64,000 nt of DNA from a virus (IMGVR_UViG_2595698411_000001:37241-101240); one strand, 5' to 3'; numbered from the stretch's first letter, positions 2 to 64,000 are shown. The notes: generated by a model from the letters alone, not told the origin. Translations and numbers: made by a program.

Positions 2-137
2 GCACTGAAAGGCTTGACCAGTGTGTTTACGCCATTCTTACCTCTTGACAACGCGTCTAAAGCTCTTGTGCCGGCAGAAGCATTGTTGCGTATTAACGAG
101 CTCAAGTCGCCTAAGAAAGGCAAAAAGAAAGCGTAAG
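2..137 (+). CDS. 3' end of an upstream gene (partial, C-terminal Lys-rich tail)
   Basis: Open frame from the window edge to TAA at 135-137. Translation is ...ELKSPKKGKKKA*. Confidence 0.3.
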
Positions 138-219
138 CTATGCGCAATCGTGAACTAGTGAGATTGGTTGTGCTAGGCATTATCGCCTGCACAATCTTAA
201 CAATATTAGGATACTAAAC

Positions 220-597
220 ATGGCAATAGCATCTTACGACGCAATAAAAATGTCTCTTGAAATTGAGAACGCAGCTAGGGAAGAACTTAGAAAGCAGCGT
301 AGCTACACGCTTTACTTCTTCGCCAAAGCGATAGCAGACAAAGAAGCTACTGTCATGTACCAATCTAAAGGTATTGGTATCCTTGGAGCGAAACTGGTGT
401 GGAAGGACGGCACGACTATGCTGATCGACCACAAAACTTACAAAGCCCTGTTTAAAGACAAGATGATAGGGCTGATGGGGCTTACTTTAAGACATCGAGA
501 ACTGAAGCTGTGGAATACCCAAGATTTGCCTTGGAAACCGGCTTCAGACCGACTAACTGTTGAACAAAAACTATTGGAGATACCAAACGGATCGTAA
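220..597 (+). CDS. hypothetical early protein
   Basis: 125-aa ORF with ATG start, co-oriented in a gene-dense array. Confidence 0.5.
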   Translation: MAIASYDAIKMSLEIENAAREELRKQRSYTLYFFAKAIADKEATVMYQSKGIGILGAKLVWKDGTTMLIDHKTYKALFKDKMIGLMGLTLRHRELKLWNTQDLPWKPASDRLTVEQKLLEIPNGS

Positions 598-853
598 CTC
601 AGAAATATTAAGACTACTAAGACGTGTAGACGCTCAGAAGAACTACCTTGTTAACCTAAAGCGTAATCCTTTAACTCGAAGCGAGCCTGTTGCGTGTAAG
701 CACGACTGTGACATGGCCTACATGAAGGAATTTGAAGACCTTAAGCGAAACTTTGTCGATGCTTGCACAGCTATCGTTAAAAAGCAACTAGCGGAAGACG
801 AGAAAAAGCTCGAAGCTATTAACGTTCTTTTGTCAGACAATCCAGACGTCTGA
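560..853 (+). CDS. hypothetical early protein (start uncertain)
   Basis: 97-aa ORF that overlaps the end of the previous ORF. Confidence 0.4.
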   Translation: MNKNYWRYQTDRNSEILRLLRRVDAQKNYLVNLKRNPLTRSEPVACKHDCDMAYMKEFEDLKRNFVDACTAIVKKQLAEDEKKLEAINVLLSDNPDV

Positions 854-994
854 CCTGCATCAAAATAACGTTGGCATAGTGCATGCTATCCTTTAAGTGA
901 GGTCTGGCTTAAACGTATAATAAAGACACTAAAGTATAAGTTACAGCTTATGAATTTAAGTAGATACTTGGCTTTAACATCTAAATAAATACGT

Positions 995-1023
995 TTGCCA
1001 AACAAATCTAAACAGACTAATAT
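995..1023 (+). promoter_or_regulatory. sigma70-like promoter (TTGCCA, 17-nt spacer, TAATAT)
   Basis: -35 TTGCCA at 995-1000 and -10 TAATAT at 1018-1023 with a 17-nt spacer, in a 285-nt AT-rich intergenic region upstream of ORF 1137. Confidence 0.35.
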
Positions 1024-1136
1024 TTGTACAGACCTCAACTTTGAGTGATACACCGTTAGTCTTATAAGAACTGGGCAGATTGTTAATGGTTATCAATGAC
1101 TTACAACAAGTAATGCTATTTGCTATAGGATAAACA

Positions 1137-1436
1137 ATGAAACAACCAATGTTTGTATGCATAGGCGGTGAAATAAAAAGTAGTGACGGCACCCAACGTT
1201 ATGTTGAGCCTGAGCGCTTGTCGGCACTATACAACGTCAAGCAAGAAAATTGTGTCTTCGTGGAAAACGAGGAAGAATACCAAAAGCACTATGCTCATAT
1301 GCATCTGGTGCCGTTAAGAGCCAGTACTTCTAACAATTACAGTACTGACGACTCCTTTACTTCACTTGTTCATCAAATCGACACGATGAACACAGTCCTC
1401 CAAGAAACCAAAGGCTTGCTTGCCAAGCTAGGTTAA
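1137..1436 (+). CDS. hypothetical protein
   Basis: 99-aa ORF. Confidence 0.5.
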   Translation: MKQPMFVCIGGEIKSSDGTQRYVEPERLSALYNVKQENCVFVENEEEYQKHYAHMHLVPLRASTSNNYSTDDSFTSLVHQIDTMNTVLQETKGLLAKLG

Positions 1437-1514
1437 AACCCTTTTAACACAAACTTATGCTGGTCATGAAAGTGACCGGCAGCTTTTGCGTATCTGAAAC
1501 AAAATAGGATCAAC

Positions 1515-1874
1515 ATGAAAAACTTACTTATGGCTGTAGCCCTTACAGCAGGATTAACTGTGCCTGCAGCAGCAGAAGAAGAGACTACCTTTATGGCGCC
1601 TTTAGGACTTGAATCTTGCGCTTATGTAAAGAACAAATCAAAGGAACTAGGGGAAGTATACCGCTTAGGGACTGAGATCTTTGCAATAGGCTATCTTAAC
1701 GCAGTATCAATTATGCTTTATGCCGACAAAGGCTCAGTAAACCACGTACCTGAAGGCGACAATACAGCTAACGTGTATCTAGCAGCTATAAAACTCTATT
1801 GCGAAAGAAACCCTAGTGCTTCTTATATAGAGGCAGTAGCAAACAGCTTAGACGCTGTCAGTGTGAGCAAGTAG
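1515..1874 (+). CDS. secreted protein (N-terminal signal peptide)
   Basis: N-terminus MKNLLMAVALTAGLTVPAAA is a typical Sec signal peptide; 119 aa. Confidence 0.55.
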   Translation: MKNLLMAVALTAGLTVPAAAEEETTFMAPLGLESCAYVKNKSKELGEVYRLGTEIFAIGYLNAVSIMLYADKGSVNHVPEGDNTANVYLAAIKLYCERNPSASYIEAVANSLDAVSVSK

Positions 1875-2031
1875 GTATGGAGCATTTGCTACTACTTTTA
1901 ATCATAGCTGCAGTATCGTATGTCTGCTTTATGGCAGGCTTAACCGTAACTAGGGCCTTACTAGATGTAATCCATGCCCTAATCAAATCAATCAAACATC
2001 GTAAATTCAACAAATAGTAGGAATCAACAAA

Positions 2032-2682
2032 ATGACTAAAATCGAACAACTTAAAGCACAAGTTAAAGCAATCGCAGAAGCAAACGCAGCTAAAATTCAA
2101 GAAGCTGCAGAAGTAGCGCGTCTAGAAGCGACTATCAAGCTAGAAAGCAGCCCAGAGCTTATGCAAGCTAAGGTACGTCTGATGAGCTCTCAGCAGCAGA
2201 CAGAGAAGCTTCAGCAACTAGTCAATGAATGTGAGCAAATCGTAGCTAGCGTGCCTGTATTCAACTCTAAGACGCGTCAAAACCGTGTATGGGCTGGTGG
2301 CCACCGTTATGGCTTCGGTACTCAGGTTGATCTGATGTATCAACTAGCGACAGGTATCCTGTATGCGTGCCAGGAACACAAACAACTGTTAGTGGCGCAT
2401 ACCGGGCTTAACACTGAACTCCTAGAGCAAATTGTGACAGCATTCGGTACGCCAACTTACTACAACCGCAACTATCATACGATTGTGGAGCCAAAAACAT
2501 ACGACTTGGAAACCCTAAAGTCTGCCTTGGCTGTGATGCAATCTGACCTTGGTGTGGTAGTAGACATATCTCAAATCACTAACACTCATCTAGAAGCAGA
2601 GTTCGCTCGTGCTGAGGTAACCGCGCAGAACAACTTTGAACTAGCGAAAGAAGCGATAGCAGAAGCGGACTTCAAACTATAG
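2032..2682 (+). CDS. hypothetical protein (coiled-coil N-terminus)
   Basis: 216-aa ORF with an Ala/Glu-rich helical N-terminus. Confidence 0.55.
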   Translation: MTKIEQLKAQVKAIAEANAAKIQEAAEVARLEATIKLESSPELMQAKVRLMSSQQQTEKLQQLVNECEQIVASVPVFNSKTRQNRVWAGGHRYGFGTQVDLMYQLATGILYACQEHKQLLVAHTGLNTELLEQIVTAFGTPTYYNRNYHTIVEPKTYDLETLKSALAVMQSDLGVVVDISQITNTHLEAEFARAEVTAQNNFELAKEAIAEADFKL

Positions 2683-2727
2683 GTGTAACGACAGGGCGGC
2701 TTAGGCTGCCCTATCCAAGGAGACAAC

Positions 2728-2952
2728 ATGAAAGTTTTAGTAACACTGCTATCCCTAGCTCTGTTAGCGGCTTGCACTCCTCGTACTGGCCTGAATAAAG
2801 CCAAAGGAGAGTACCTGTGCCGTAACAACGGAGGAATATATTTCTTTTACAGCTTTAGCGAATACCCGGTTGTGTGTAACGACGGTACAGCATTTACCAT
2901 CAAGCAGCTAGAAACCATCATTATTAAAGATCCAGAGTATTTACCGGAGTAA
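2728..2952 (+). CDS. putative lipoprotein
   Basis: N-terminus MKVLVTLLSLALLAAC carries a lipobox LAAC; 74 aa. Confidence 0.5.
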   Translation: MKVLVTLLSLALLAACTPRTGLNKAKGEYLCRNNGGIYFFYSFSEYPVVCNDGTAFTIKQLETIIIKDPEYLPE

Positions 2953-2956
2953 AGCA

Positions 2957-3208
2957 ATGCTTAATTACGAAGCGAAAGAACTGATAGGCCAAACCGTTTA
3001 CCTTATCTCAGTTCAGTACATGGAAAACTACGGCAGTAGGTGGAAGTTCAAGCTGGGGGACACTCACGTTATCCCTGCAAGCGAAAAAACCCCAGAGACA
3101 ATGATAGCAGCCGTTGACTCTCTGGACTTGATTAACAACTCACAAGCGAGAGAAGTAATAATTTCAGTACAGTTTAAAGTACTGACAGCCGAAGACTGCG
3201 AATATTAA
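2957..3208 (+). CDS. hypothetical protein
   Basis: 83-aa ORF. Confidence 0.45.
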   Translation: MLNYEAKELIGQTVYLISVQYMENYGSRWKFKLGDTHVIPASEKTPETMIAAVDSLDLINNSQAREVIISVQFKVLTAEDCEY

Positions 3209-3231
3209 TAACGTTTTAAGCGGAGGTCACC

Positions 3232-3975
3232 ATGCGTGATGCAATACTTGAAGGTAACTTGCCTTTTCCAGGTACAGCCTTGTTCTCACTATACCCTCAA
3301 CAGAAAGATGACATAGAGCGCTTTTGGAAAGCAATCTGGCTCAACTTTCTGAATGACAGTGATACTAACGGTGTCTATTGGTACTCAGAACTAGGCTCTA
3401 AGCTTTACAACGAAGTAGTACGGCGCTTATCGCACCACGGCTGGGTAACTAGTCATGCGATTACAGCACGACGTTGGGCATGCGTTGAGCTGAATGAAGA
3501 AAAGCTCTTTGAGTTCATAACTCCTGACGAACTGTTGGATGTTAAGACAGAAAACAAGTACCAGAAGTATGTGCTTGAACTCAGAGAAGCAACAGCTTCA
3601 ACCCTTGTAAGACAGAACGGCGAAACTAAGCGCACAGGCCTTGTTAGAAAAGGCTTTCGTGACTCAGGCAATACTCAGTTTGGGTACGACATGGACGCAC
3701 TTCATCAATATGAGGAAGCAGTTAAGCTGAACCTAACTAAATCAATGGACAAGATCCGACAGGACTATCCAGAGATGAAGACAACTAGCGACTCTTATGA
3801 CAACGTCAGTGTAGGTATTTATGACTGGCACTACGAAAATAAGAACGAAGTGTTTACGACAGGCAATAACATCAATGATAGCCGAGGCAGGGCTATCAGT
3901 AGTTGCCTAAAGAAAGTGGCCAACCCTATTAGCAGTAAAGATTTCAGGGCAGCCCTAGTAATAACTTACGATTAA
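3232..3975 (+). CDS. T7-like phage RNA polymerase (N4 RNAPII-type), N-terminal piece carrying motif T (DxxGR)
   Basis: ...YDWHYENKNEVFTTGNNINDSRGRAISS aligns to T7 RNAP FPYNMDWRGRVYAVS (DxxGR). The ORF ends 26 aa after the motif. The next RNAP piece continues the T7 alignment with no residues missing. Confidence 0.6.
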   Translation: MRDAILEGNLPFPGTALFSLYPQQKDDIERFWKAIWLNFLNDSDTNGVYWYSELGSKLYNEVVRRLSHHGWVTSHAITARRWACVELNEEKLFEFITPDELLDVKTENKYQKYVLELREATASTLVRQNGETKRTGLVRKGFRDSGNTQFGYDMDALHQYEEAVKLNLTKSMDKIRQDYPEMKTTSDSYDNVSVGIYDWHYENKNEVFTTGNNINDSRGRAISSCLKKVANPISSKDFRAALVITYD

Positions 3976-53241: not shown

Positions 53242-53408
53242 TTACCGACCTATTCCAGTCTGTAGGCATACTATTCTGCATTCTTATATGTGTAGCAATA
53301 GTAGCCGTAGTAATGTACTTATCGTACATTTTAGGAATAGGTCTAGTAATCGCTGGCCTGCTTTTTGTGATCTACCATATCGTTAGTTTAATGAAACGTC
53401 ATACGTAG
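53238..53408 (+). CDS. small membrane protein (56 aa, 2 TM; not in the supplied ORF track)
   Basis: Translated by hand: MITDLFQSVGILFCILICVAIVAVVMYLSYILGIGLVIAGLLFVIYHIVSLMKRHT*. It overlaps the 3' end of the convergent vRNAP gene by 26 nt. Confidence 0.35.
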   Translation: MITDLFQSVGILFCILICVAIVAVVMYLSYILGIGLVIAGLLFVIYHIVSLMKRHT

Positions 53409-56400
53409 ATGCTTTCAGTAATGAAGGCGTCACGACGTTCATAAAGATATCAGTTGGGCTGTATATGGGGAATACGTTCCCCGGCCCAAGTGATTCTGCA
53501 TACCAATCTTTAGCTAAGAACGACTGTTCGTGTATGCTAGGCAAACCGCCTGCAATACCAGTAGCCATCAAACCTAGTGTCGTTTTAATAAGCCCTCTAC
53601 CGCCGGTCTTAGTAATAATCCGCTGAATACGCTTCACGTATTTAGTGAACATCAAAATACCTACTTTGTTTAGGTACTCTTCAAATCTACCTGACGGCAT
53701 AGCGTAGTTGATATAGTCTTCTACCAGCTCGTATTTACGGTTCTCTTCCGCCCGCTTTAAGAACTCTGTTCTTTCCGCGCCTACCAGACGTTGTCTAGCC
53801 TTATAATCTTTAGGCTTGCCTTCCATCCACCAATTAGGCAAACGCTCTTGTCCGTTGACTTGACGCTGTTCTGACCGCTTTTCCATAACATTTTGAATGT
53901 CACGAGACATTAAGTCTGTAATTTCCAAAAACTCGTTTACCACCTGATACGGCGCAGTGCGCTTAGTCAAAAACAAATAGTCTAGACCTGTTCTAGCCAC
54001 ACTAGGCAAATTCTCTGTTTTTTCGTCAAAGAACCGGCTGATCTTATTAGTGTCACGCACTACCTCAGAAGATAAATCCTCTACCGACTGGTCTAAGCCC
54101 ATCTGTATAAGCTCATGTACGCGACTGCCTGTGATCCTAGTTTCTAGAGAGTTTAACTCTCCTTGCACACGCTTAAGCTCCAATTTAAGCTCATTTTTAC
54201 GTCGAGTGCTTACTACCTTATCGTTTGACCCTTTACGAGATCGAGGCGTATCTAGTATCTTCTTACCTAGCGCTACTTTGATTTCTCTTTCTCGGTTCTG
54301 CAGCTCTTGCTTTCGTTTGAGGTTGCTGTTGTAGGTTTTTATAGTTTTAAAACTATCCACCTGCATAGACAGCACTTCTTTCGGATTATAACCCTTCATA
54401 ACAAGATAAAGTGTATTAGAGAAGAAGTTGCTTAGCGTAACTGTAGGCATTTTCATCAAAATGTTAGTTTTCGCTATTTGAACTACTTCCATCCAAACAG
54501 TTTCAGCAATTCTCGCAGCTCTTAGCAATACGTCAGGCGTTACCTGTTTTAGCAGACCTACATCCGCAATACTGGCCTGGCTATACCCAAAATACATATT
54601 TTTCAAAGAAGTTCTGACAGCTAGTGTCTTATCTTCTCTGCTTTTAATAAACGACTGAAACTCTTTTGGCAGCATGTAGTACAGCTTCCTCATTTCTGGG
54701 TTGCTTACTTCAGGGCCTATCAATGTAAAGTCCGTAAGACCGTCCTTTCCTTTAGTACCTCTTGACCAATTTTCTTTCATGTCCGATCTAAGCGCATCTA
54801 GCACCTTAGCGTTATGCTGAGCAGTCATATCTTTATCGATCAGTGAACCAAAAGACTTGCCCATTACCTCAGAGATGCGCGTATCCTGTTTCAGCAACTG
54901 CTTCTTGGTCTTTTTGTCCATCATGTAGCGGTAGTCGACTACTACGCCTTCTTCGTTAAGCAGCGGCATTAGTCCGTACACGGTATCTTTGAAGTCGTAC
55001 TCGCCTTCTTCCATCTTCTTGATGCGCACTTTAGCTTCACGAGATATTCTGTTTATGTCTCGTGCCGCAGTTTCTCTGATCAAGCTACTAGGGAGGCCTT
55101 CGCCTTCTTTGTACTTCGCTGCAGTGACAGTGGTACCCTTAGATCTCAGCTGGTTAAATCGTACACCGCCGCGTAAACGTTCTGGCCTGCTTGCGCTATC
55201 GGTCACGTAAAGCGCCATAGTTTCGCCAATCTCAGAGCCTGTTTTCTTAACTAGAGTGCCTTTGTACTGAAAGCCTTGCTTCTCCATAGCACTGCGTTCT
55301 TTTAGCGGTGCTACCTCCATCAGGATACCATCATCAAACACTTCACGAGTGTAGCCCATAATCATGTTGCGCTGGTTCTTTTTAAACACCGTCTCTACAG
55401 TGTTTTTACGGAACCCTTCTATTATGTCAGCTACATGTTGTACTGCTTCATAGTCGCGCTTCATTAGGTCTGCTACCAGCGCACGAGGAGCTTTTTCAGT
55501 GTTCTTGATAGCTGTAAGAGTCGCCAGTTCTTCTACAGCCTTAATGACACTAGCTCTTGGGCGCTTGCGGTTACTGCTATGTATACCTTCCGCAATATTA
55601 CGAGCATTGTGATTCTGCTCTGGCGTACCTAAGTGCTTAGCCATATAAATGCCTAAACCTACAGCTTGGTTAGAGTGCCAATTGTAGTTAGTCGAGTCTG
55701 CGTCTTTAAGGGCTCTTTTAGCGGTCTGGATCGCTTTATCTAGTGCATCTTCGTCTGTAAGCAGTTTGCGTATAGTGGCGTTATCAAACACACGTTCTTT
55801 TACCAAACCGGCTTCTGATGCAGCAGTGGCTTTACCGAACAGAGACGCAAGTGCCGTGTCCGCCAATACCGCTGTCATAGCCTCTTCTTCTTCACGAGTA
55901 GGGGCTTCTTTAAACTTACTAAGCACGTTGTCTTTAGTCAGGCCGATCTGCTCGTTACGAAACTTATCAACGTAGCCTGCTTGGAGCGTAAGAAACTCTG
56001 CTACTTTTTGGACAGGCTCTGTCTGGAACAGTCCACCAACAATCTCACGTATAGTACCGTCTGGTCTTAGGCCATAAGAGCTGGCCAAAGCGCCCATTAC
56101 CTTGGTGTAGGTGGGGTTTACCATAGACAAGCCGATAAGCTTTGCACTGTACTTGACACGCCCATACAAGCTGTCAGGCATTTCTTCAAACTCTTTAGTA
56201 GCTAGTTTGCCTATCGTGCTTTCGCTCGCTTTCTGCAACTTTCCTGCTAACGCTTTGTCAGGACTATTCAGAACTAGGTCATACACTCTTGACAAGAATC
56301 CTGGCTTTTCGGACGCCTTGATAGCTGCTTTAGTGTTTATCTCACCCAGCTCAAACGCCAGCTGCACTAACGCGTCATCTACTTTTTGGTTGCGGTTTTT

Positions 56401-57612
56401 GACCGTAAGCTGGCCCGTAATGACGTCTTGTACGAATCCCCATAAATCGTATAAGCGGTCTAGTATGGTTTTAGACCCTGAGGTGTCTTTGACCTTTACT
56501 TTAGACAGTGCTTTAGCAACTAGGGGCTGAGCAATACCCTTAGCCAAAAACTCTTCACGGGTAGTGTTGCTGTTGAAGATGTAATCGTACAGCTTGTTAG
56601 CAAACTCCATTTCTTTTTCTGGGTCTACAGAGTCTTCTGGAGCAGGTAAGAAATCTTCCGGTTTAAGCTGTTTACGGCCTAACTCAACTAATGCGTCTAG
56701 GCGTCTAACTAGTTGGTCACTTTTAACAGTGCCTGCGTTAATGGCGCCAGAAGTCATAGAGTGCACCACTTCTTCCATGTAGATAGAAGCTTCTGATTGC
56801 TGGTTACCTATTGAAGCAGGGTCGCTCTTTATTTTTATATCAATACGAGTCGGACGAACAATACCTTTTGAGGTTTTTGCCTTGTCGTTGATAAACAGTT
56901 TCAAGTCTTCAAAAAACCGTGGCTTCATTTTATCTAGGAGCGCTAAGTGCCCTTGCAGTTCTTTATAGTCAGCCTTTTCGCCGCCAAGTTTATGCACCTT
57001 TTTGAGCATGGCTTTCATGTTCTCGATATTACCGTGCACGTAGCTTTTTTCTTGGTCTTTGTCTTTTAGTTTGAAGTCAGCGCCTGGGGCACTACCTAGC
57101 GCCATGCCTAGGCTTTCTTGCTCGTTTTCAGCAAGACTAAGGTTGTCCAGAAAGTCTCTAAAACCGTCTATTTGAATATAGCGGTTATTCTTAGTCATAG
57201 TGCTGCGTTCGCCGGTAGTCAGGGAGAACGTGTTACTCTTAGGGCGGCCTTTATGGATATAGTGGATACGAACACCGCCATCTACCATTTCCGCTTTTTG
57301 AAACATGGCATTATTGCGGGTGGTGCTGCTTCCGTGTCGGAAACTAAACGTGGGGCCAAAGGTGTCGCTAAACACTTTAGTAGCTAGTTCCCCGCGTTCT
57401 TTTCGAGTGTTTAAGGTAAAGCCTTGAGCTTTTATAAAGTCGTAATCTTTATTCTTGATTGCGGCTTTATAAGCGTACAAACGCTCTAAAGTCTCGTTAA
57501 TAGGGGTACTGTCAACGCCTTCCAGTGTATCGTCTTGAGCCATACGCTCGTATGTCTTGATCCACTCGTTGACAGTATCGTTGAATACTTTAGGGTTTGT
57601 ACAAATAGTCAT
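53383..57612 (-). CDS. virion RNA polymerase (vRNAP) C-terminal domain encoded as a separate ORF (1409 aa)
   Basis: Its ATG lies 7 nt after the TAG stop of the upstream ORF, in a different frame. The size and position match the ~1400-residue C-terminal encapsidation domain of N4 vRNAP, which follows the polymerase domain. Confidence 0.6.
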   Translation of the reverse strand: MTICTNPKVFNDTVNEWIKTYERMAQDDTLEGVDSTPINETLERLYAYKAAIKNKDYDFIKAQGFTLNTRKERGELATKVFSDTFGPTFSFRHGSSTTRNNAMFQKAEMVDGGVRIHYIHKGRPKSNTFSLTTGERSTMTKNNRYIQIDGFRDFLDNLSLAENEQESLGMALGSAPGADFKLKDKDQEKSYVHGNIENMKAMLKKVHKLGGEKADYKELQGHLALLDKMKPRFFEDLKLFINDKAKTSKGIVRPTRIDIKIKSDPASIGNQQSEASIYMEEVVHSMTSGAINAGTVKSDQLVRRLDALVELGRKQLKPEDFLPAPEDSVDPEKEMEFANKLYDYIFNSNTTREEFLAKGIAQPLVAKALSKVKVKDTSGSKTILDRLYDLWGFVQDVITGQLTVKNRNQKVDDALVQLAFELGEINTKAAIKASEKPGFLSRVYDLVLNSPDKALAGKLQKASESTIGKLATKEFEEMPDSLYGRVKYSAKLIGLSMVNPTYTKVMGALASSYGLRPDGTIREIVGGLFQTEPVQKVAEFLTLQAGYVDKFRNEQIGLTKDNVLSKFKEAPTREEEEAMTAVLADTALASLFGKATAASEAGLVKERVFDNATIRKLLTDEDALDKAIQTAKRALKDADSTNYNWHSNQAVGLGIYMAKHLGTPEQNHNARNIAEGIHSSNRKRPRASVIKAVEELATLTAIKNTEKAPRALVADLMKRDYEAVQHVADIIEGFRKNTVETVFKKNQRNMIMGYTREVFDDGILMEVAPLKERSAMEKQGFQYKGTLVKKTGSEIGETMALYVTDSASRPERLRGGVRFNQLRSKGTTVTAAKYKEGEGLPSSLIRETAARDINRISREAKVRIKKMEEGEYDFKDTVYGLMPLLNEEGVVVDYRYMMDKKTKKQLLKQDTRISEVMGKSFGSLIDKDMTAQHNAKVLDALRSDMKENWSRGTKGKDGLTDFTLIGPEVSNPEMRKLYYMLPKEFQSFIKSREDKTLAVRTSLKNMYFGYSQASIADVGLLKQVTPDVLLRAARIAETVWMEVVQIAKTNILMKMPTVTLSNFFSNTLYLVMKGYNPKEVLSMQVDSFKTIKTYNSNLKRKQELQNREREIKVALGKKILDTPRSRKGSNDKVVSTRRKNELKLELKRVQGELNSLETRITGSRVHELIQMGLDQSVEDLSSEVVRDTNKISRFFDEKTENLPSVARTGLDYLFLTKRTAPYQVVNEFLEITDLMSRDIQNVMEKRSEQRQVNGQERLPNWWMEGKPKDYKARQRLVGAERTEFLKRAEENRKYELVEDYINYAMPSGRFEEYLNKVGILMFTKYVKRIQRIITKTGGRGLIKTTLGLMATGIAGGLPSIHEQSFLAKDWYAESLGPGNVFPIYSPTDIFMNVVTPSLLKASTYDVSLN

Positions 57613-57619
57613 GTAGGCT

Positions 57620-60600
57620 CTACTGTTTGCAATGCTTGCTGGCTAAAGCATCTAGTTGATCGATAGTCATATTATTGACAGGTGAGTTAACTCCATTATC
57701 AGGAATTTCCTCATATAAGTCAATTTCAGCATAGTCCACAGGGTTGTCCGGGCCTACGTTGAAAACACCATCGCTAGTGCCTGCCATATGCATTACAGAC
57801 GCCCCTTCGTTCAACGAATCAAACAGTTTTTTTCGTTGTTTGTTTACCTCGTTAGCAAGTTTAGCTGCAGCGTTACGAGACTGGATCATAAAACTAGCGA
57901 CATTAACTTCTGTTTCCCTGTCTACCTTAACCGTAGCTTCTTGATAAGGCGTCTTGCCGCTTTCCGAGAATAACGGAGTGTTTTTAATGTTTCTATCCAT
58001 AGCCTTGACCAACTCGTTTACAAAGCTGTACTGGGCACTAGTTTCAAGAGTAGCTTTATTATAAGCCTCTTGAGCTTCTCCCATGCGCAGCAGATTGGGC
58101 ATAACAGCGTCGTGTATGCTTGTCATATCTCCGCCCATCGCATTGATACTAGCAGCCATAACAGCGCCATCGATGTAGTGTATAGGTACAACTGATCCGG
58201 CTGATATAGCAGCGCTAAGAGCTTTAATCATATGAGAAGTACGAATACTGTTACCTTTACCCGCATCTAGGCGTTTACCTGCCTCAGGGGTTAGGTAGCT
58301 TATAGATGCTTTACGACCTGCGTAAGCGCCGTAAGGAGACGCAGTATCCATGCTGTACACGCCGATAGCACCGTCTTGAGTAAAATCTTCTTCCATCTTA
58401 CTTAAAGGGCCCTTGATTGCTGGCCATTGGTTTAAAGTAGATGTATAGAGCTCTTTTTCCTTTTCTGCAGATACAGGGCCTTCTCTACGAGCTTCTAAAA
58501 GCTTCTCTTCGTAAGATACTTTAAACACCTCAAACATCGCTTTAAAGCCGTCGTTTATAGTGGTTTGCGCTTCAACAAAAGGTTGGAACTCCTTGTTCAG
58601 TACGTTTTCTACTTGCACGCCGTAAGATGCGTCAATCATTACATCTAGGTATTCTCCAAGACTAGCGCCTTTGTTTCCTAAACGGACTTTGTTCATAGGC
58701 ATAGTTCTGATAGCTGCCTGCAACTTACGCAAGTCGGATTTGTCGTCACTGTTAGCGTATGCCGCTAATAACTTAACTAGTGGTTTATCCTTGTCCTTTA
58801 TAACTTTTTGACCTAAGTCAATCTTAGCCAGTTTTGATGCTATGTCGTCCTGCATTGTCCCTTTAAGACGCGTTCTAATAGACTTAATAGACGAAGCGTA
58901 GTTAAACGTCATAAACGGGTACTTGAACAAGTTACGCAGTTCGCTAGATATGCCGCCTTCCGGATCAGCTGAAGGCAATACTTCAGAGACTGCAGACCAC
59001 AAGTCTTTAACGTATTTGTTATCTGACTTAAGCAAAGGAGACCCTTTAGCATTAGTCTTAAGCGCCTTAAAAGAAGTGTTTTTAACACTAGAAGCAAGGA
59101 ACTGATAACTATCTAGGAACTTCTCTAGTCCTCTTTCTTTGTTCTCTTGCAGGCTTAGTACGTTATTCATGCTCGGCACGTCTACTCTGTTAAGAATAGC
59201 GTCTGAGTGCTTGAATATTCCTACCTTACCTAGCCAAGTAAAGAGTTTTCTACCTACAACAGGCATCTGTAAGAGCTTCAGCGCAAAACCGCTAGTTACA
59301 GCATCAAATTCCGCAGTAATAGCGCTTTCAAACTGGCCAGGACTAGTTAAAGAGTCTTCGACAAACTTGAACGCTTGTATGGCGTGGCCTAAGTGTTCGA
59401 TCTCAATTTCTTGCCCGTTACTTAACTCGTAAACACCAGCGTCTAAAAAGGCTTTACGCGCTTTTTTAAGCTTCTTAGGAGTGTTTAAGTCTTTAAGTAC
59501 AGTCTCCGCAAATGTAGCTATGTCTGCGTCTGACTTTTTGTCAGTAGCAAAACCAAAACCTTGCGCAAGCGCGTAGTGAACTAGTGGTGTTACGTCTTTG
59601 CCTTCTACACTAAACCGGTTACCCGTACGCTTGTATGTATTGTTGTGCGCTTTAGGCTGTACAAAGAAACGGTGTAAGTGTTTATAGTTCTGCGGATTAA
59701 TAGTATTGCTGTCCACAAAGAAACGGCCGTTCTTAGAGAAGAAGTAGTTAAACCACATAGACACTTTATTTGTGTCTTTTTCGGTCTGCTTGTTAAGCCA
59801 CTTCAAATGCTCAATTTCTTGCTCGATGTCGCGGTTCTTTGACGCCTGTACTTGCTGCTCTTTATAAGAAAGCTTCATAAATTCGGGAGTAGGATCACCG
59901 TCCTCGTCTTCTACGGCTATGTAACCTAGCAACTTTTTAAGTTTGTCTGCATTCTTCAGCGCAAAACGTACCAAAGACATATCAGCGACCATTTCAGTGT
60001 CCATAAGCTTTTCCATAGCTTCTTTAGACTTGTCAGCAATGCTTAAGCCTAAACGCTCTTTACGGATCTTCTTAGTAGCCTTGTCTTTTTGTTTTTTGGT
60101 CGGGCGAGCAAACAGTGGTTCTTTACGACGCACATCCATATTAGGCATGCTGTTCTCTAGGATATTAGTTATAAAGCTTAAATCCTCTACAGCCTCTTTG
60201 CTTTTGATATTGACAAAGTTAACCACAGCGTCAGAGTCACTAGTTTCGTGCTCGGCCTTGCCTAGTACGTCCCTCGCGAACTGTTTGCTGCTCATTGACT
60301 CTTTAGTCAGCAGATCTTCATTTTTGCCTGCACCGACAGCTAGAGCAATCTGCCCTAGTTCGGTTGTCAACGCCGAAAACAGCTGTGCATCAACGTCGTC
60401 AGCATTCTTGGCTCTAAGGCCCATCAATTTGACGATGTCTTTACCTACGCTGTCTGTAGCAGTCTTGAACAGCAAACCTTTATCCTGCATTAAGCTGATA
60501 GCTTTTTCTGACAGCTCAGACTCGTGCTTACCCAGTATTTGCGCTATCTCTTCTGGCGTCTTGCTGTCTTTGCTCATCAAGAACGCATTATTCTTCACAA

Positions 60601-63600
60601 AGTTATACAAGCCGATCTTAATAGCTACTGCCATGTTAGGGTTAAGCTGGTTGTCTTTATCGAAAAGCAAAGCAGCCGCAGCGCTGTCCGCTAACTCTAG
60701 AGGTAGCTTAGTTTTGCTGAGGTTTATCTCGCGCAACGTCTTTTCCAAGTCTTCGACAGCTTCTTCTACAAAACTGTTAAAGATAACGTTGTCTGAGCCG
60801 TCTAGCAAAAGCTCGTCCATTTCTAACGTGTTAAGAAGTGTAGGTTCGGCTACTTCAACAAACTTCTCAGGATCTAGCTCAATAACCTGATAAGAGCCGT
60901 CTTCTGACAAGTTTTCAACGTCTTTAAAGTTAGCAGTAGTGGCGTAGTCGTCTTTACCGCGCACTTTATAGGTGTATAGCTTCTTGTCGCCGTACTCTAT
61001 GTCTGCGTTAGCTTTACCTAGTGAATTGTCAATCATTCGAGTAGCAACAGCTTTCAAGCTATCGCCGAAAGTCTCTTTCAGCCACTCGTCTAAAGACGCT
61101 TTACCTTTCTTCGCCTTTTCCTCTACTTTTTTCCATTCCTTGACTAACTTACCGCTTTTAGACAAACGCGCTATTTTTTGACGAACACGCTTGTCTGCCA
61201 TACGGCCAGCAGTGTTTCTAGCAGCACCTAAAGCTTCGCTATACTCTTTGCTTTCCAGGCCTTCTTTTAAGGCAATAGCATCTAATTTTTTCTCTAACGC
61301 ATCAGTCTCTTTTTTAAGAGCGCTGATAGCATGATCTCGCATGTTCTTTTCAGTGTCGCCTTTTGTGAAATACTCTTTAGCTGCTTCCTTGGCCTTAGCA
61401 AAAGTTGCTTTCTCTTCCTTACTAGGTTTACGTTTTTCTTCTTTGGCGGTCTGCAGTGCATCAAACGAGTCAACTAGGTTGTTTAAGATACGCGCTTTGC
61501 GTTTCTTTTTGCTTTCTTTTTCTTTGTTCTCTGCACGTACAGCGTCAGCCTTGTCTTTACGGAGTATCATAGGCACACCGTCGACAGTGATAAGACTGCC
61601 TTGGTAACTAGCGGCAAGCTTAGCAACGTTAGTTCTGTTAGCTTTTCCGTCTAGGTCCACTGCCGGGTCAATAACAAGCTTAGCGCCTGCCATTATAGCT
61701 TTGCTAAAAGCCTTGCTTGCAGTGGAGTTTTTACGAATGCCAGTAGTAGTAAGCAGAACTACATCGTCCTCTGCAAAATCTGTAGTGCCTTTTGTTATTT
61801 TACTTTCATTCAGCAGAGTGTAATCACCACCACTCTTCCACCATTTAGGACTAGTTTTCTCGTCAGTAATTACTTTAGTAGGTTTAGTCTTATCGTAGCG
61901 CGCTTTATGGTTTTCGCGGTTTTTGGCAATACCTTTATTTCCACGAGTCTCAACAGGAACGTCTACAATATTCGATTCACTTTCTTGGTCGCCGATCTTT
62001 TTAAGGGCAGCCTTACGGTGACGCACTAGGGTGGTCTCTAGGTGGTCGATAGTATCATCTAATGAATCTAGTAAGGCCTGACTGCGCTCGTCGATCTTAT
62101 ATGAGCCGTCTTCGTTAGCCATAACGTTGATGTAGTTACCAGAATCTAAATCACGGCTCTTAGGCTTTACCGCACTAACACCTTTTTTGTTTCTGTTTTT
62201 GTTGTAGTTATCGATGTCTGCCTGCAGTTCGTTGACCACAGTACGGTACATTTCTTTACGCTCTTTTTGGCTTTCTAAGAACGAGTTTATCTTGCCTAAT
62301 TGTTGACGCACGGCACTCTTACGAACCCCTGGAGTGTTGATCAACTTAACTAGGCTAGAGCGGTGTGTTACAGCACTAGATTTGCCTTTGCCCATCGACT
62401 CTTCATAGACCATTTTAGCGTCTTTACCGTTAAGCTTGGCTCTTACGTTTTTAAAGCGGAAAGGTTTTTGGCCGTTCTTTTGAAGATACGCGTTAACTAG
62501 GTCCACATCTTCTGTACCAAAGGCGTCAAGGTCACCCTCTACCGATACCTTAGAGTCGATATACATTTCAGCTACATCTTCGGGACTGAAACCTGACCCT
62601 AAAGTAACTGAGTCTTCGCTCTCCATAATCTTTTTAGCCGCTTCGATACGAGTTTTGTTCAAAACGTCTAGTGCCAAAGTGTCACCCTCAGTGGCCCTAT
62701 TGGTACCTTTACGGCCCTTGATAACCTCTTCTGCAGCTTCGATCTCAGTAACAATTTCAGAGAACGTCATGTCTTCTTGGTCAAGCGCGCTTTTCAGCTC
62801 GGTAGTGTCGACGTTTTCTTTATCGCCTTCTTCTCCAGAGCTCAGCACAATAAGACCTTTCTGACCAAACATTTTGGCGTACTTGGACGCTACTTCACTA
62901 GCTTTTTTATCCGCTTCGGTTTGTTCAGTCTTTAAGTCCTCTTCAGAGATCTCTGGGTCTACGTCACCAGTTTCCGTTTCAGCAGACGCAGGAGTATTTG
63001 CCGCTGCTTTTGCTTGGCTTTCCTTGATGATGTTAGCTGCGCCTCGTACAGAGTCTACAGTAGGTCTTATAGCGCCTATCTGCGCACCAGAACCCGCACC
63101 GGCTAAGGTGCCTGTCAGAATTTCAGCACTAGCTTCGCTTAGTACCTCTTTAACCGACTTGTCCTTAAAGTCCGCACTGTCGACTTTCTGATTAAGCTGC
63201 TCAACAATACTGTCTACAGTCTCTTGGGTACCTTCTTTTAAGCCTCCAGCAACTACACGAGCGACTGTTTCACCAGTGCCTTTTATAAGACCTTTTTTAA
63301 CCTCTTTTTTGACTTGAGCGGTAGTAGCGTTTTTGATACCAGCGATAGACTTCAAACTTGCTATTTCTGCGCTAGAAACAATACGGTTCAACAAGACCAT
63401 TTGAGCTAGCTTCTCCGGGCTTGGATCTTCACCGTTGTTGTTTTCTTTAAACGCAGTAATATCATTGTTCATACGAACCATCATATCTGCGTTGGTGTAA
63501 ACGCTGCCACGAAGCAAATCAGGGACTTTTTTAACTAGTGTATAGCTTTCTTGAAGTTGTTTTACTTTTGCAGCATCGCCGGCAGCAGAAGCTACTTTAA

Positions 63601-63991
63601 CTTCATCAGCTATTTTAGATACATTATTAGTAAGAACGCTCTTCACAGTGTCGGTAAACTTGTTGTTACCAATAAACTTAGCACCTACTTTAGCGCCTGT
63701 TTTTCCTGCAGCACCTAAAGCACCACCGCTACCTACAATTTCTGTTACCATTGAAGCGGTAAGGGACGGGTCAGTTAAAACTTCTAATGCCGCAGAACCA
63801 AGCTTTGAAAGCTTCTCTGGGTCAGAGAACGCACCTACAATAGAGTCCCAGCTAGTGATATCAATACCACTAGCATCGATGTCTTCCATCGCTTTCTGAA
63901 GAGTGATTTCGTCTACACGGCGGTCGTAACCTACAAACTTATCTACTGCGTCTATAGCAGCCTTTTTATAAGAGTCGGCAAACAAGTCCAT
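57620..63991 (-). CDS. virion RNA polymerase (vRNAP) N-terminal and polymerase domains (T7-like motifs T, A, B, C present); probably extends past the window edge
   Basis: Motif T FNYFFSKNGRFFV aligns to T7 FPYNMDWRGRVYA. Motif A ITAEFDAVTSGFALKLLQM aligns to PLAFDGSCSGIQHFSAML. Motif B RNLFKYPFMTFNYASS is R-x3-K-x7-YA. Motif C MTSIHDAVM aligns to LIHDSFGT. B-to-C spacing is about 275 aa, against about 285 in N4 mini-vRNAP. 162 aa follow motif C, against about 155 in N4. Confidence 0.75.
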   Translation of the reverse strand: MDLFADSYKKAAIDAVDKFVGYDRRVDEITLQKAMEDIDASGIDITSWDSIVGAFSDPEKLSKLGSAALEVLTDPSLTASMVTEIVGSGGALGAAGKTGAKVGAKFIGNNKFTDTVKSVLTNNVSKIADEVKVASAAGDAAKVKQLQESYTLVKKVPDLLRGSVYTNADMMVRMNNDITAFKENNNGEDPSPEKLAQMVLLNRIVSSAEIASLKSIAGIKNATTAQVKKEVKKGLIKGTGETVARVVAGGLKEGTQETVDSIVEQLNQKVDSADFKDKSVKEVLSEASAEILTGTLAGAGSGAQIGAIRPTVDSVRGAANIIKESQAKAAANTPASAETETGDVDPEISEEDLKTEQTEADKKASEVASKYAKMFGQKGLIVLSSGEEGDKENVDTTELKSALDQEDMTFSEIVTEIEAAEEVIKGRKGTNRATEGDTLALDVLNKTRIEAAKKIMESEDSVTLGSGFSPEDVAEMYIDSKVSVEGDLDAFGTEDVDLVNAYLQKNGQKPFRFKNVRAKLNGKDAKMVYEESMGKGKSSAVTHRSSLVKLINTPGVRKSAVRQQLGKINSFLESQKERKEMYRTVVNELQADIDNYNKNRNKKGVSAVKPKSRDLDSGNYINVMANEDGSYKIDERSQALLDSLDDTIDHLETTLVRHRKAALKKIGDQESESNIVDVPVETRGNKGIAKNRENHKARYDKTKPTKVITDEKTSPKWWKSGGDYTLLNESKITKGTTDFAEDDVVLLTTTGIRKNSTASKAFSKAIMAGAKLVIDPAVDLDGKANRTNVAKLAASYQGSLITVDGVPMILRKDKADAVRAENKEKESKKKRKARILNNLVDSFDALQTAKEEKRKPSKEEKATFAKAKEAAKEYFTKGDTEKNMRDHAISALKKETDALEKKLDAIALKEGLESKEYSEALGAARNTAGRMADKRVRQKIARLSKSGKLVKEWKKVEEKAKKGKASLDEWLKETFGDSLKAVATRMIDNSLGKANADIEYGDKKLYTYKVRGKDDYATTANFKDVENLSEDGSYQVIELDPEKFVEVAEPTLLNTLEMDELLLDGSDNVIFNSFVEEAVEDLEKTLREINLSKTKLPLELADSAAAALLFDKDNQLNPNMAVAIKIGLYNFVKNNAFLMSKDSKTPEEIAQILGKHESELSEKAISLMQDKGLLFKTATDSVGKDIVKLMGLRAKNADDVDAQLFSALTTELGQIALAVGAGKNEDLLTKESMSSKQFARDVLGKAEHETSDSDAVVNFVNIKSKEAVEDLSFITNILENSMPNMDVRRKEPLFARPTKKQKDKATKKIRKERLGLSIADKSKEAMEKLMDTEMVADMSLVRFALKNADKLKKLLGYIAVEDEDGDPTPEFMKLSYKEQQVQASKNRDIEQEIEHLKWLNKQTEKDTNKVSMWFNYFFSKNGRFFVDSNTINPQNYKHLHRFFVQPKAHNNTYKRTGNRFSVEGKDVTPLVHYALAQGFGFATDKKSDADIATFAETVLKDLNTPKKLKKARKAFLDAGVYELSNGQEIEIEHLGHAIQAFKFVEDSLTSPGQFESAITAEFDAVTSGFALKLLQMPVVGRKLFTWLGKVGIFKHSDAILNRVDVPSMNNVLSLQENKERGLEKFLDSYQFLASSVKNTSFKALKTNAKGSPLLKSDNKYVKDLWSAVSEVLPSADPEGGISSELRNLFKYPFMTFNYASSIKSIRTRLKGTMQDDIASKLAKIDLGQKVIKDKDKPLVKLLAAYANSDDKSDLRKLQAAIRTMPMNKVRLGNKGASLGEYLDVMIDASYGVQVENVLNKEFQPFVEAQTTINDGFKAMFEVFKVSYEEKLLEARREGPVSAEKEKELYTSTLNQWPAIKGPLSKMEEDFTQDGAIGVYSMDTASPYGAYAGRKASISYLTPEAGKRLDAGKGNSIRTSHMIKALSAAISAGSVVPIHYIDGAVMAASINAMGGDMTSIHDAVMPNLLRMGEAQEAYNKATLETSAQYSFVNELVKAMDRNIKNTPLFSESGKTPYQEATVKVDRETEVNVASFMIQSRNAAAKLANEVNKQRKKLFDSLNEGASVMHMAGTSDGVFNVGPDNPVDYAEIDLYEEIPDNGVNSPVNNMTIDQLDALASKHCKQ

Positions 63992-64000
63992 GTCGTAAGT

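Follow-up and report, generated by a model that had tools for sequence, protein, structure and literature searches.

Two-gene virion RNA polymerase of Alteromonas phage AD45-P1 and the single cysteines facing its junction

The 64,000-nt stretch of viral DNA IMGVR_UViG_2595698411_000001:37241-101240 (the window) matches Alteromonas phage vB_AmaP_AD45-P1 at 100% identity (KF005317 / NC_021532; window position equals KF005317 position minus 37240) and encodes on its minus strand a virion RNA polymerase (vRNAP) related to gp50 of coliphage N4. This vRNAP very probably consists of two adjacent, separately initiated genes, an open reading frame (ORF1) for the intact polymerase and a second one (ORF2) for an N4-type C-terminal domain, with the cut falling in the linker. 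The split into two polypeptides in AD45 is real but has been known since 2013; what appears to be new is how broad the split group is, together with the evidence that counts against recoding, the rule that describes the cysteines at the junctions, and the three-piece forms. It is further proposed, tentatively and at slightly less than even likelihood, that segmented vRNAPs are a widespread overlooked class, the pieces of which would be stitched together head-to-tail by disulfides, in some cases with a Dda-like helicase among them, until the cytoplasm cuts the chain.

The two ORFs and their junction occupy the following positions in the window:

57620..64000, minus strand: ORF1, polypeptide with the N-terminal domain and the RNA polymerase; 2123 codons visible from the ATG at 63991; match to PHROG 2206 with E=4e-58
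57620..57622, minus strand: ORF1 stop codon TAG, re-sequenced by Garcia-Heredia 2013
57613..57619, minus strand: stop-to-start spacer of 7 nt, whose sole Shine-Dalgarno-like element is a weak GAG overlapping the stop
57610..57612, minus strand: ATG start of ORF2, kept in homologues (M-x-x-C-T...)
53383..57612, minus strand: ORF2, C-terminal-domain polypeptide of 1409 aa with its stop at 53383; tblastn E=1e-45, PHROG 2206 E=5e-115, 9pnr_A E=2.6e-25

The original prediction, made from the sequence of the window, had described the same two minus-strand ORFs, with a TAG at 57622-57620 followed seven nucleotides on by an ATG at 57612-57610 that opens a frame of 1409 aa, and the ORF calls confirm this arrangement. 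Its figure of at least 2123 aa for ORF1 holds for the visible part, but ORF1 extends beyond the window end and comprises 2481 aa in the GenBank record, from an ATG at record position 102305; an alternative upstream GTG start would give 2495 codons. ORF1 ends with the residues ...LASKHCKQ. ORF2 lies in the +1 frame relative to ORF1.

In KF005317, positions 90623-102305 (window 53383-64000; 11.7 kb) carry only a misc_feature, “potential frameshift: N4 gp50-like,” and zero coding sequences, so that both vRNAP proteins are absent from protein databases under that accession. The NCBI taxonomy (taxids 1300004 and 2948690) lists AD45-P1 under “unclassified Caudoviricetes” and not under Schitoviridae, and the name “Efbeekayvirus vB_AmaP_AD45-P1,” used in mSystems in 2023, looks like a metadata mismatch, as this genus name belongs to Klebsiella phages. 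The isolates AD45-P2, P3, and P4 have a junction identical to that of AD45-P1, i.e., the split is found in 4 isolates out of 4, and among 50,697 deposited phage genomes membership in the group is limited to AD45-P1 to P4. These phages were described as AltAD45-P1 to P4 by Garcia-Heredia et al. (2013, Bacteriophage 3:e24766, PMC3821669), who assigned the vRNAP jointly to the adjacent genes ORF127 (2481 aa) and ORF126, the same pair that is studied here. The stop codon of ORF127 was PCR-amplified and re-sequenced in that work, and gels revealed polypeptides of 270 and 175 kDa, which the authors judged to be “two independent polypeptides.” Cysteines in the AltAD45 vRNAP were taken as an argument against its injection, and their positions went unremarked; the paper lists ORF126 with 1404 aa and ORF127 with two cysteines, but the AD45 sequence has 1409 aa in ORF2 and one cysteine per ORF. 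No relatives were available in 2013, so that paper could not have recognized that the split is conserved, that the frames vary, that a cysteine rule exists, or that there are three-piece forms. The pair of ORFs was also noticed in an mSystems survey (Zheng et al. 2023, PMC10654107), where read-through was raised as a speculation and the ORFs were concatenated.

Assignment of the two ORFs to the N4 family relies on profile comparisons. Pfam searches with either ORF or with 8 relatives gave no meaningful matches, phmmer and profile hmmsearch runs with the polymerase part against PDB sequences did not recover the N4 mini-vRNAP, and a pairwise BLASTP comparison of ORF1 with N4 gp50 was not significant. 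HMMER does not bridge the divergence between the polymerase part and N4; a profile-profile alignment by way of intermediate fused vRNAPs was therefore used, in which eight concatenated ORF1+ORF2 pairs were aligned by hhalign to five fused vRNAPs (N4, BUCT194, PT15-A5, Littlefix, and XC38). The resulting alignment is collinear along its entire length (Prob 100, E=3e-118, query 82-3879 versus N4 4-3496). In addition, the matches to PHROG 2206 (“virion RNA polymerase”) cover profile positions 642-1978 for ORF1 and 2281-3179 for ORF2; placement of the two ORFs on successive parts of the same profile is more than a chance resemblance. Judging from these alignments, the ORF1+ORF2 pair is an N4-type vRNAP by homology. 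The polymerase domain and its catalytic motifs are found at the following positions:

57671..61408, minus strand: polymerase domain, counterpart of N4 gp50 1007-2101 (ORF1 residues ~1220-2465) by hhalign, with low-confidence boundaries and a high-confidence catalytic core
59723..59737, minus strand: motif T/DxxGR (SKNGR), in which R1781 corresponds to R424 of the N4 mini-vRNAP (hhalign, posterior confidence 9)
59288..59311, minus strand: motif A (EFDAVTSG), D1921 corresponding to N4 D559 (hhalign)
58895..58936, minus strand: motif B (RNLFKYPFMTFNYA), R2044, K2048, and Y2056 corresponding to N4 R666, K670, and Y678, with YA versus YG in N4 (hhalign)
58106..58120, minus strand: motif C (SIHDA), D2319 corresponding to N4 D951 (hhalign)

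All six N4 catalytic residues (R424, D559, R666, K670, Y678, and D951) are conserved in ORF1, where each of them is mapped with posterior confidence 9, and they are invariant across 30 diverse ORF1-type relatives. The motifs SKNGR, EFDAVTSG, R-x3-K-x7-YA, and IHD had all been located correctly in the original prediction, which had also singled out two of them as unusual. The YA of motif B, as opposed to the near-universal YG, is real and a usual trait of the group: a consensus drawn from 30 diverse ORF1-type sequences is FNYSAS, and YA characterizes the AD45 subgroup. Ser instead of Asp in motif T is unremarkable, given that N4 itself has Thr at this position (TRVGR).

ORF2 can be linked to N4 more directly. 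In tblastn searches, it matched the C-terminal parts of annotated single-gene vRNAPs, and its profile aligned with residues 2454-3378 of the solved N4 vRNAP structure 9pnr_A. The portion that aligns with confidence is as follows:

53623..56805, minus strand: part of ORF2 (residues ~270-1330) aligned confidently with subdomain C2 of the N4 C-terminal domain in profile alignments

The first ~270 residues of ORF2 could be aligned with N4 subdomain C1 only at low confidence. A Foldseek search with a model of ORF2 residues 1 to 400 ranked the N4 vRNAP (9pnt) first, with prob 1.0, in a weak match (E=0.18, 137 columns). AD45 ORF2 and 6 of 7 relatives lack the HExxH motif that N4 subdomain C1 contains (HELVH at residue 2228); the HEVLH at residue 309 in the L005 locus is the only instance among them. 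The original prediction had considered that ORF2 might prove unrelated to vRNAP C-terminal domains; the PHROG 2206 and 9pnr_A matches listed above show that it is related to them.

In the 2026 cryo-electron microscopy study of N4 gp50 (PMC13434306), the N-terminal domain (1-906), a linker (907-1006), and the polymerase (1007-2101) are followed by an invisible 23-residue linker (2102-2123) and the C-terminal domain (2124-3500), which weakly auto-inhibits the polymerase and, when supplied in trans, does so only at large excess. N4 residues 2101 and 2124 correspond in the hhalign output to ORF1 residue 2465 and ORF2 residue 13. The confident alignment blocks end around N4 2003-2075 and resume around N4 2455; the stretch from the motif C Asp to the end of the domain, which in AD45 is the ORF1 stop, comprises 162 aa versus 155 aa in N4. 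Given the collinearity between the flanking confident blocks and the similar distance from motif C, the alignments indicate that the cut falls midway through the region equivalent to the disordered N4 linker 2102-2123. The original placement of the break, at the border of the polymerase and C-terminal domains, is thus supported, with N4 residues 2101 and 2124 flanking the linker.

The split is by no means limited to the AD45 isolates. A search with ORF2 yielded 32 homologues in independent metagenome assemblies, with identities from 91 to 32%; nearly all of these exist as separate proteins of 1384-1439 aa and span the full query. In the seven cases with gene context, an ORF1-type gene of 2399-2756 aa ends 2-23 nt before the start of the ORF2-type gene, and the downstream synteny is kept. 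An exhaustive phmmer comparison of the last 1000 aa of ORF1 with 1.84 billion cluster representatives produced 428 matches, the best 150 of which are mostly proteins of 2000-2900 aa with the match ending near the C terminus. A profile-guided scan of IMG/VR identified 36 loci, 21 of them split; the fused ones encode 3100-4000 aa. Altogether, the split is retained in uncultured relatives down to about 22-30% identity. Other searches contributed little: word indexing, which limits reach, left 2 matches for the ORF1 polymerase part and a single addition, the distant Cys-free protein P0183, for the ORF2 profile, and single-protein scans of IMG/VR with three distant representatives found nothing where the alignment-based scan succeeded. 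In a neighbor-joining tree of the polymerase domain, the smallest clade that holds all 9 fused tips also includes 33 split tips, so that fused and split forms are not separated. The two-gene layout is ancient and under selection. Conservation of the split among relatives, which the original prediction had called for examining, is thus evident from the 32 ORF2 homologues and the 21 IMG/VR loci, and its suggestion of a genuine two-polypeptide vRNAP gains support from this conservation, from the separate ATG codons, and from the two published gel bands.

One locus in the set stands apart. L049 (IMGVR_UViG_3300031760_000047) has an open frame of 4044 aa with a distant polymerase-domain match (25% identity) and 20 cysteines, and all the other relatives are Cys-depleted; it may encode a giant polymerase-containing protein that is not ejected.

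Comparison of 34 junctions revealed spacers from -11 to +26 nt, including 11 TAATG stop-start overlaps, and downstream ORFs in all three frames (0 in 8 cases, +1 in 6, and +2 in 20). The stop codon is TAA in 27 of the 34, the downstream start is ATG in every one, and a Shine-Dalgarno-like motif is present in 31. The variable frames and spacers and the separate ATG codons point to separate, translationally coupled initiation, and the short or overlapping stop-start junctions would be expected to couple translation in such a way that the two chains are made in roughly equimolar amounts. The same data effectively rule out a programmed +1 frameshift or read-through (Zheng et al. 2023) that would yield one vRNAP of ~3890 aa. 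That explanation draws on the adjacency of the ORFs and their collinearity with the single-chain family, on the overlap of their frames over 23 nt, on the “potential frameshift” label in GenBank, and on the concatenation of the ORFs in the mSystems paper, which assumed read-through. However, upstream of its ATG the ORF2 frame stays open no farther than 57642, which confines any recoding to those 23 nt, and 57642-57620 contains no slippery motif. Such recoding is also at odds with the mixture of frames, spacers, and mostly TAA stops in the homologues, with their universal downstream ATG and usual Shine-Dalgarno-like motif, with the conserved M-x-x-C-T N terminus, and with the separate 270- and 175-kDa bands on the gels (PMC3821669). 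The programmed frameshift that the original prediction had offered as an alternative therefore does not hold up, and recoding of any kind is highly improbable.

A sigma-70-like pair, TTGACT-17 nt-GATAAT (10 of 12 matches), is found on the minus strand at 57695-57723, inside the 3′ end of ORF1 and ~83 nt upstream of the ORF2 ATG. A separate ORF2 promoter at this site (57723-57695) was not accepted, as such sites are rarer than chance in the region.

The N4 vRNAP family is known for its avoidance of cysteine, and the fused vRNAPs of N4, BUCT194, PT15-A5, Littlefix, and XC38 have none. AD45 ORF1 contains one cysteine in 2481 residues, at position 2479, and ORF2 contains one in 1409, at position 4; at the 1.21% Cys content of the other ORFs in the window, ~47 would be predicted for these 3890 aa. 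It had escaped the original prediction that the pair has just two cysteines, one on either side of the break:

57629..57631, minus strand: codon TGC of Cys2479, the sole cysteine of ORF1, two residues from the C terminus
57601..57603, minus strand: codon TGT of Cys4, the sole cysteine of ORF2, an invariant column in a predicted floppy tail ahead of a helix at residues 7-26

The same pattern holds in the relatives. In those with gene context, the single ORF1 cysteine is 0-3 residues from the end and the single ORF2 cysteine is at residue 3-5. All 31 ORF2 homologues with an intact N terminus begin with M-x(0-3)-C, with this column invariant, and one of them has a second, internal Cys. Among 128 near-full-length ORF1-type representatives, 121 have exactly one Cys, located 0-6 residues from the C terminus (121 cysteines in 307,429 residues); five of the remaining seven are Cys-free fused proteins of 3036-3628 aa, and two are exceptions. 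In the 21 split IMG/VR loci, the next ORF starts with M-x-C or M-x-x-C (Cys at position 3-6), and the fused loci have zero cysteine. Both TGT and TGC are used at the cysteine codons on each side of the junction, which indicates selection at the protein level. In these sequences, the rule is that chain ends facing a junction carry one Cys (at residue 2-6 on the ORF2 side) and the other ends none.

Conserved short helices are found beside the cysteines (..L-x-x-L-A-x-x-H-C in ORF1 and C-T-N-P-x-x-F-x-x-x-V-E-x-F-I-x-x-Y-E in ORF2). In the predicted ORF2 model, Cys4 belongs to a tail with a low predicted local distance difference test score (pLDDT), and the AlphaFold2 model of the C-terminal 400 aa of ORF1, built from a 3-sequence alignment, has a pLDDT of 48.7, so its tail is uninformative. 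The genes just upstream of ORF1 in the relatives, on the same strand, encode proteins of 548-819 aa and 138-161 aa with zero cysteine:

L003:305-2522, L004:232-1923, L007:255-1901, L008:225-2681, and L010:451-2666, same strand as ORF1: Cys-free upstream genes, positional counterparts of N4 gp51/gp52

As these upstream genes are Cys-free, the junction cysteines are the only ones in the presumed ejection operon.

Five loci (L034, L040, L043, L045, and L036) encode the vRNAP in three pieces and extend the same pattern. Their third piece corresponds to the whole AD45 ORF2, which makes the middle piece an added module. The middle piece has exactly two cysteines, one per end, as in the 776-aa protein of L034 with Cys at residues 3 and 774; the first piece has Cys at its C-terminal end only (L040 ORF1 has one extra internal Cys), and the last piece only at its N-terminal end. 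In two of these loci, the middle piece belongs to a known family:

L043:3370-5997: middle piece, superfamily 1 (SF1) Dda/RecD-like helicase (Pfam AAA_30 2e-25, UvrD_C_2; PHROG 325 5e-64)
L045:4397-7429: middle piece, SF1 Dda/RecD-like helicase (Pfam AAA_30 4e-26, UvrD_C_2; PHROG 325 5e-67)

The sole cysteines of these helicases are at residues 5 and 870 of 875 in L043 and at residues 4 and 1007 of 1010 in L045, and from this arrangement the helicase appears to form a link in the chain, with the polymerase piece on one side and the C-terminal-domain piece on the other. The middle pieces of L034, L040, and L036 matched no annotated family. The cluster representative P0174, a 781-aa protein that includes the catalytic polymerase region and has its cysteines at positions 3 and 780 (MGC...EGCK), suggests that some lineage has another Cys-flanked junction, either within the polymerase part or upstream of it.

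A negative control for the cysteine rule is available in Shigella phage pSb-1 (NC_023589; L053:35194-45982), in which the vRNAP is represented by three ORFs (893, 1453, and 1228 aa) with zero cysteine. The same record also has split RNAP2 and SSB genes, and the breaks in its vRNAP look like sequencing frameshifts. This record, together with the GenBank treatment of the AD45 region as a possible frameshift without coding sequences, could suggest that the AD45 break is likewise a sequencing or assembly error, or a recent pseudogenizing mutation. However, the pSb-1 pieces, in contrast to those of AD45, lack the terminal cysteines; the AD45 junction is the same in four isolates, contains no homopolymer, and has its stop re-sequenced (PMC3821669). 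Dozens of independent assemblies keep the split to the low identities given above. Both ORFs are intact and under purifying selection, with 16 synonymous and 4 nonsynonymous codon changes in ORF2 between AD45-P1 and P3. An error or a pseudogene can be given next to no credence; the original view that the break is not an assembly artifact is borne out by the independent assemblies, by the re-sequenced PCR product, and by the pair of bands on the published gels.

What the junction cysteines do is less certain. At roughly even likelihood, the favored interpretation of their positions is that the terminal cysteines of ORF1 and ORF2 form a head-to-tail inter-chain disulfide. In such a scheme, the helices next to the cysteines would dock the ORF1 tail with the ORF2 head, and in the oxidized virion the terminal thiols would form the disulfide. 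With the cysteines at the extreme termini, the linked chain (N-terminal domain, polymerase, S-S, and C-terminal domain) would be linear and unbranched and could be threaded like the single N4 chain. The bond would keep the halves joined both inside the virion and while they are threaded through the tail, and ORF1 would travel with the C-terminal domain, which is needed for encapsidation according to Kazmierczak et al. (2002, as cited in PMC3821669). In the N4 literature, the vRNAP is thought to exit the capsid unfolded, as “beads on a string,” with the N-terminal domain first. On arrival, the reducing cytoplasm would open the disulfide and free the C-terminal domain from the polymerase. Packaging of the AD45 vRNAP in the virion and its ejection are presumed here on the basis of the cysteine purging, the Cys-free gp51/gp52-like genes, and gel bands published without method details. 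No published description of a terminal-cysteine pair or of a vRNAP disulfide was found in the literature, coverage of which was incomplete and does not prove absence.

Several observations weigh against parts of the two-gene and disulfide account as a whole. The cytoplasm, which is the site of packaging, normally disfavors disulfides, so that the initial association of ORF1 with ORF2 must be non-covalent. The alignment has zero posterior confidence at the break itself, as expected for a linker region, and AD45 itself has no good Shine-Dalgarno motif before ORF2. There are exceptions to the presence of exactly one Cys, namely, P0068, P0164, L040 ORF1, L042 ORF2, and P0009. Virion localization of both AD45 polypeptides is sparsely documented, and PMC3821669 states neither the gel conditions nor the sample.

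Alternatively, with two real polypeptides whose halves associate non-covalently, the cysteines could serve a shared metal site, a covalent or redox link to some other component of the virion or host, or homodimers of like chains, a reading that falls somewhat short of even probability. The cysteine rule implies that these residues matter but does not specify their partner, and the residue before the C-terminal Cys is often acidic or Gly (D in 23, E in 21, and G in 21 of 121 proteins), which could suit metal binding; the unfavorable conditions for disulfides where assembly occurs point the same way. However, no second conserved His or Cys ligand is found near either cysteine. The occurrence of one Cys per junction-facing end, none elsewhere, and two in the middle pieces is the pattern expected of pairwise head-to-tail links, and the fused vRNAPs, which need no such cysteine, have none.

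Protein splicing was considered as another role for terminal cysteines. Split inteins consist of N- and C-fragments of ~100 and 35 aa with the Hint fold, and their catalytic Cys residues occupy the first position of the N-fragment and position +1 after the C-fragment. This candidate was rejected: cysteines 0-6 residues from the chain ends leave too little space for intein fragments, neither a Hint signal nor a Pfam match was obtained, and the gels contain two separate bands (PMC3821669).

Coliphage N4 gp50 (3500 aa, with the mini-vRNAP at 998-2103; structures 2PO4 and 9pnr/9pnt) remains the closest characterized system. It shares with the AD45 pair the order of an N-terminal domain, a T7-like polymerase, and a sizable C-terminal domain, the catalytic residues, a homologous subdomain C2, and the suppression of cysteine, and relatives of AD45 have Cys-free gp51/gp52-like genes upstream. 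In contrast to the single N4 chain, the AD45 vRNAP comprises two polypeptides, with one cysteine on each side of the cut where N4 has none. It also differs by the YA in motif B and the lack of HExxH, is ~390 aa longer in total, and has a polymerase-domain identity to N4 too low for HMMER alone to link them. AD45 thus departs from two textbook attributes of vRNAPs, one giant chain (~3000-3500 aa or more) and the complete absence of cysteine.

A survey of 191 Schitoviridae genomes (Lokareddy et al. 2024) reported a Cys frequency of 0.00075% in vRNAPs versus 0.865% in the proteome and treated rare cysteines near the ends of “truncated” predictions (gp72 homologues) as annotation errors. The ejected proteins of the Schitoviridae operon, such as gp71 of Pseudomonas phage DEV, are cysteine-purged in the same way as the AD45 pair, save for one exception per AD45 chain, but the end cysteines dismissed there are a conserved feature in the AD45 group. 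Two-chain toxins offer a working analogy, with no relation to the AD45 vRNAP in sequence or fold; they are nicked from one chain, whereas the AD45 chains are made separately and their disulfide is putative. In botulinum, tetanus, and diphtheria toxins, cargo and helper chains are joined by a single disulfide, cross the membrane unfolded, and are separated by reduction in the cytosol, which frees the cargo.

In practical terms, both vRNAP genes in KF005317 should be annotated separately, and the junction-cysteine pair can serve to discriminate genuine vRNAP splits from sequencing frameshifts, a test that pSb-1 fails. Ejected schitovirus proteins have been held to be strictly Cys-free; a large uncultured group instead keeps exactly one Cys per junction-facing end. 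AD45-P1 to P4 are its only cultured members and hence the natural test system. If true, the disulfides would bear on questions raised by the 2024-2026 structural work on N4 and DEV, namely, the ordered threading of a giant polymerase through a channel of ~35 Å, the role of the C-terminal domain, and the relief of its auto-inhibition.

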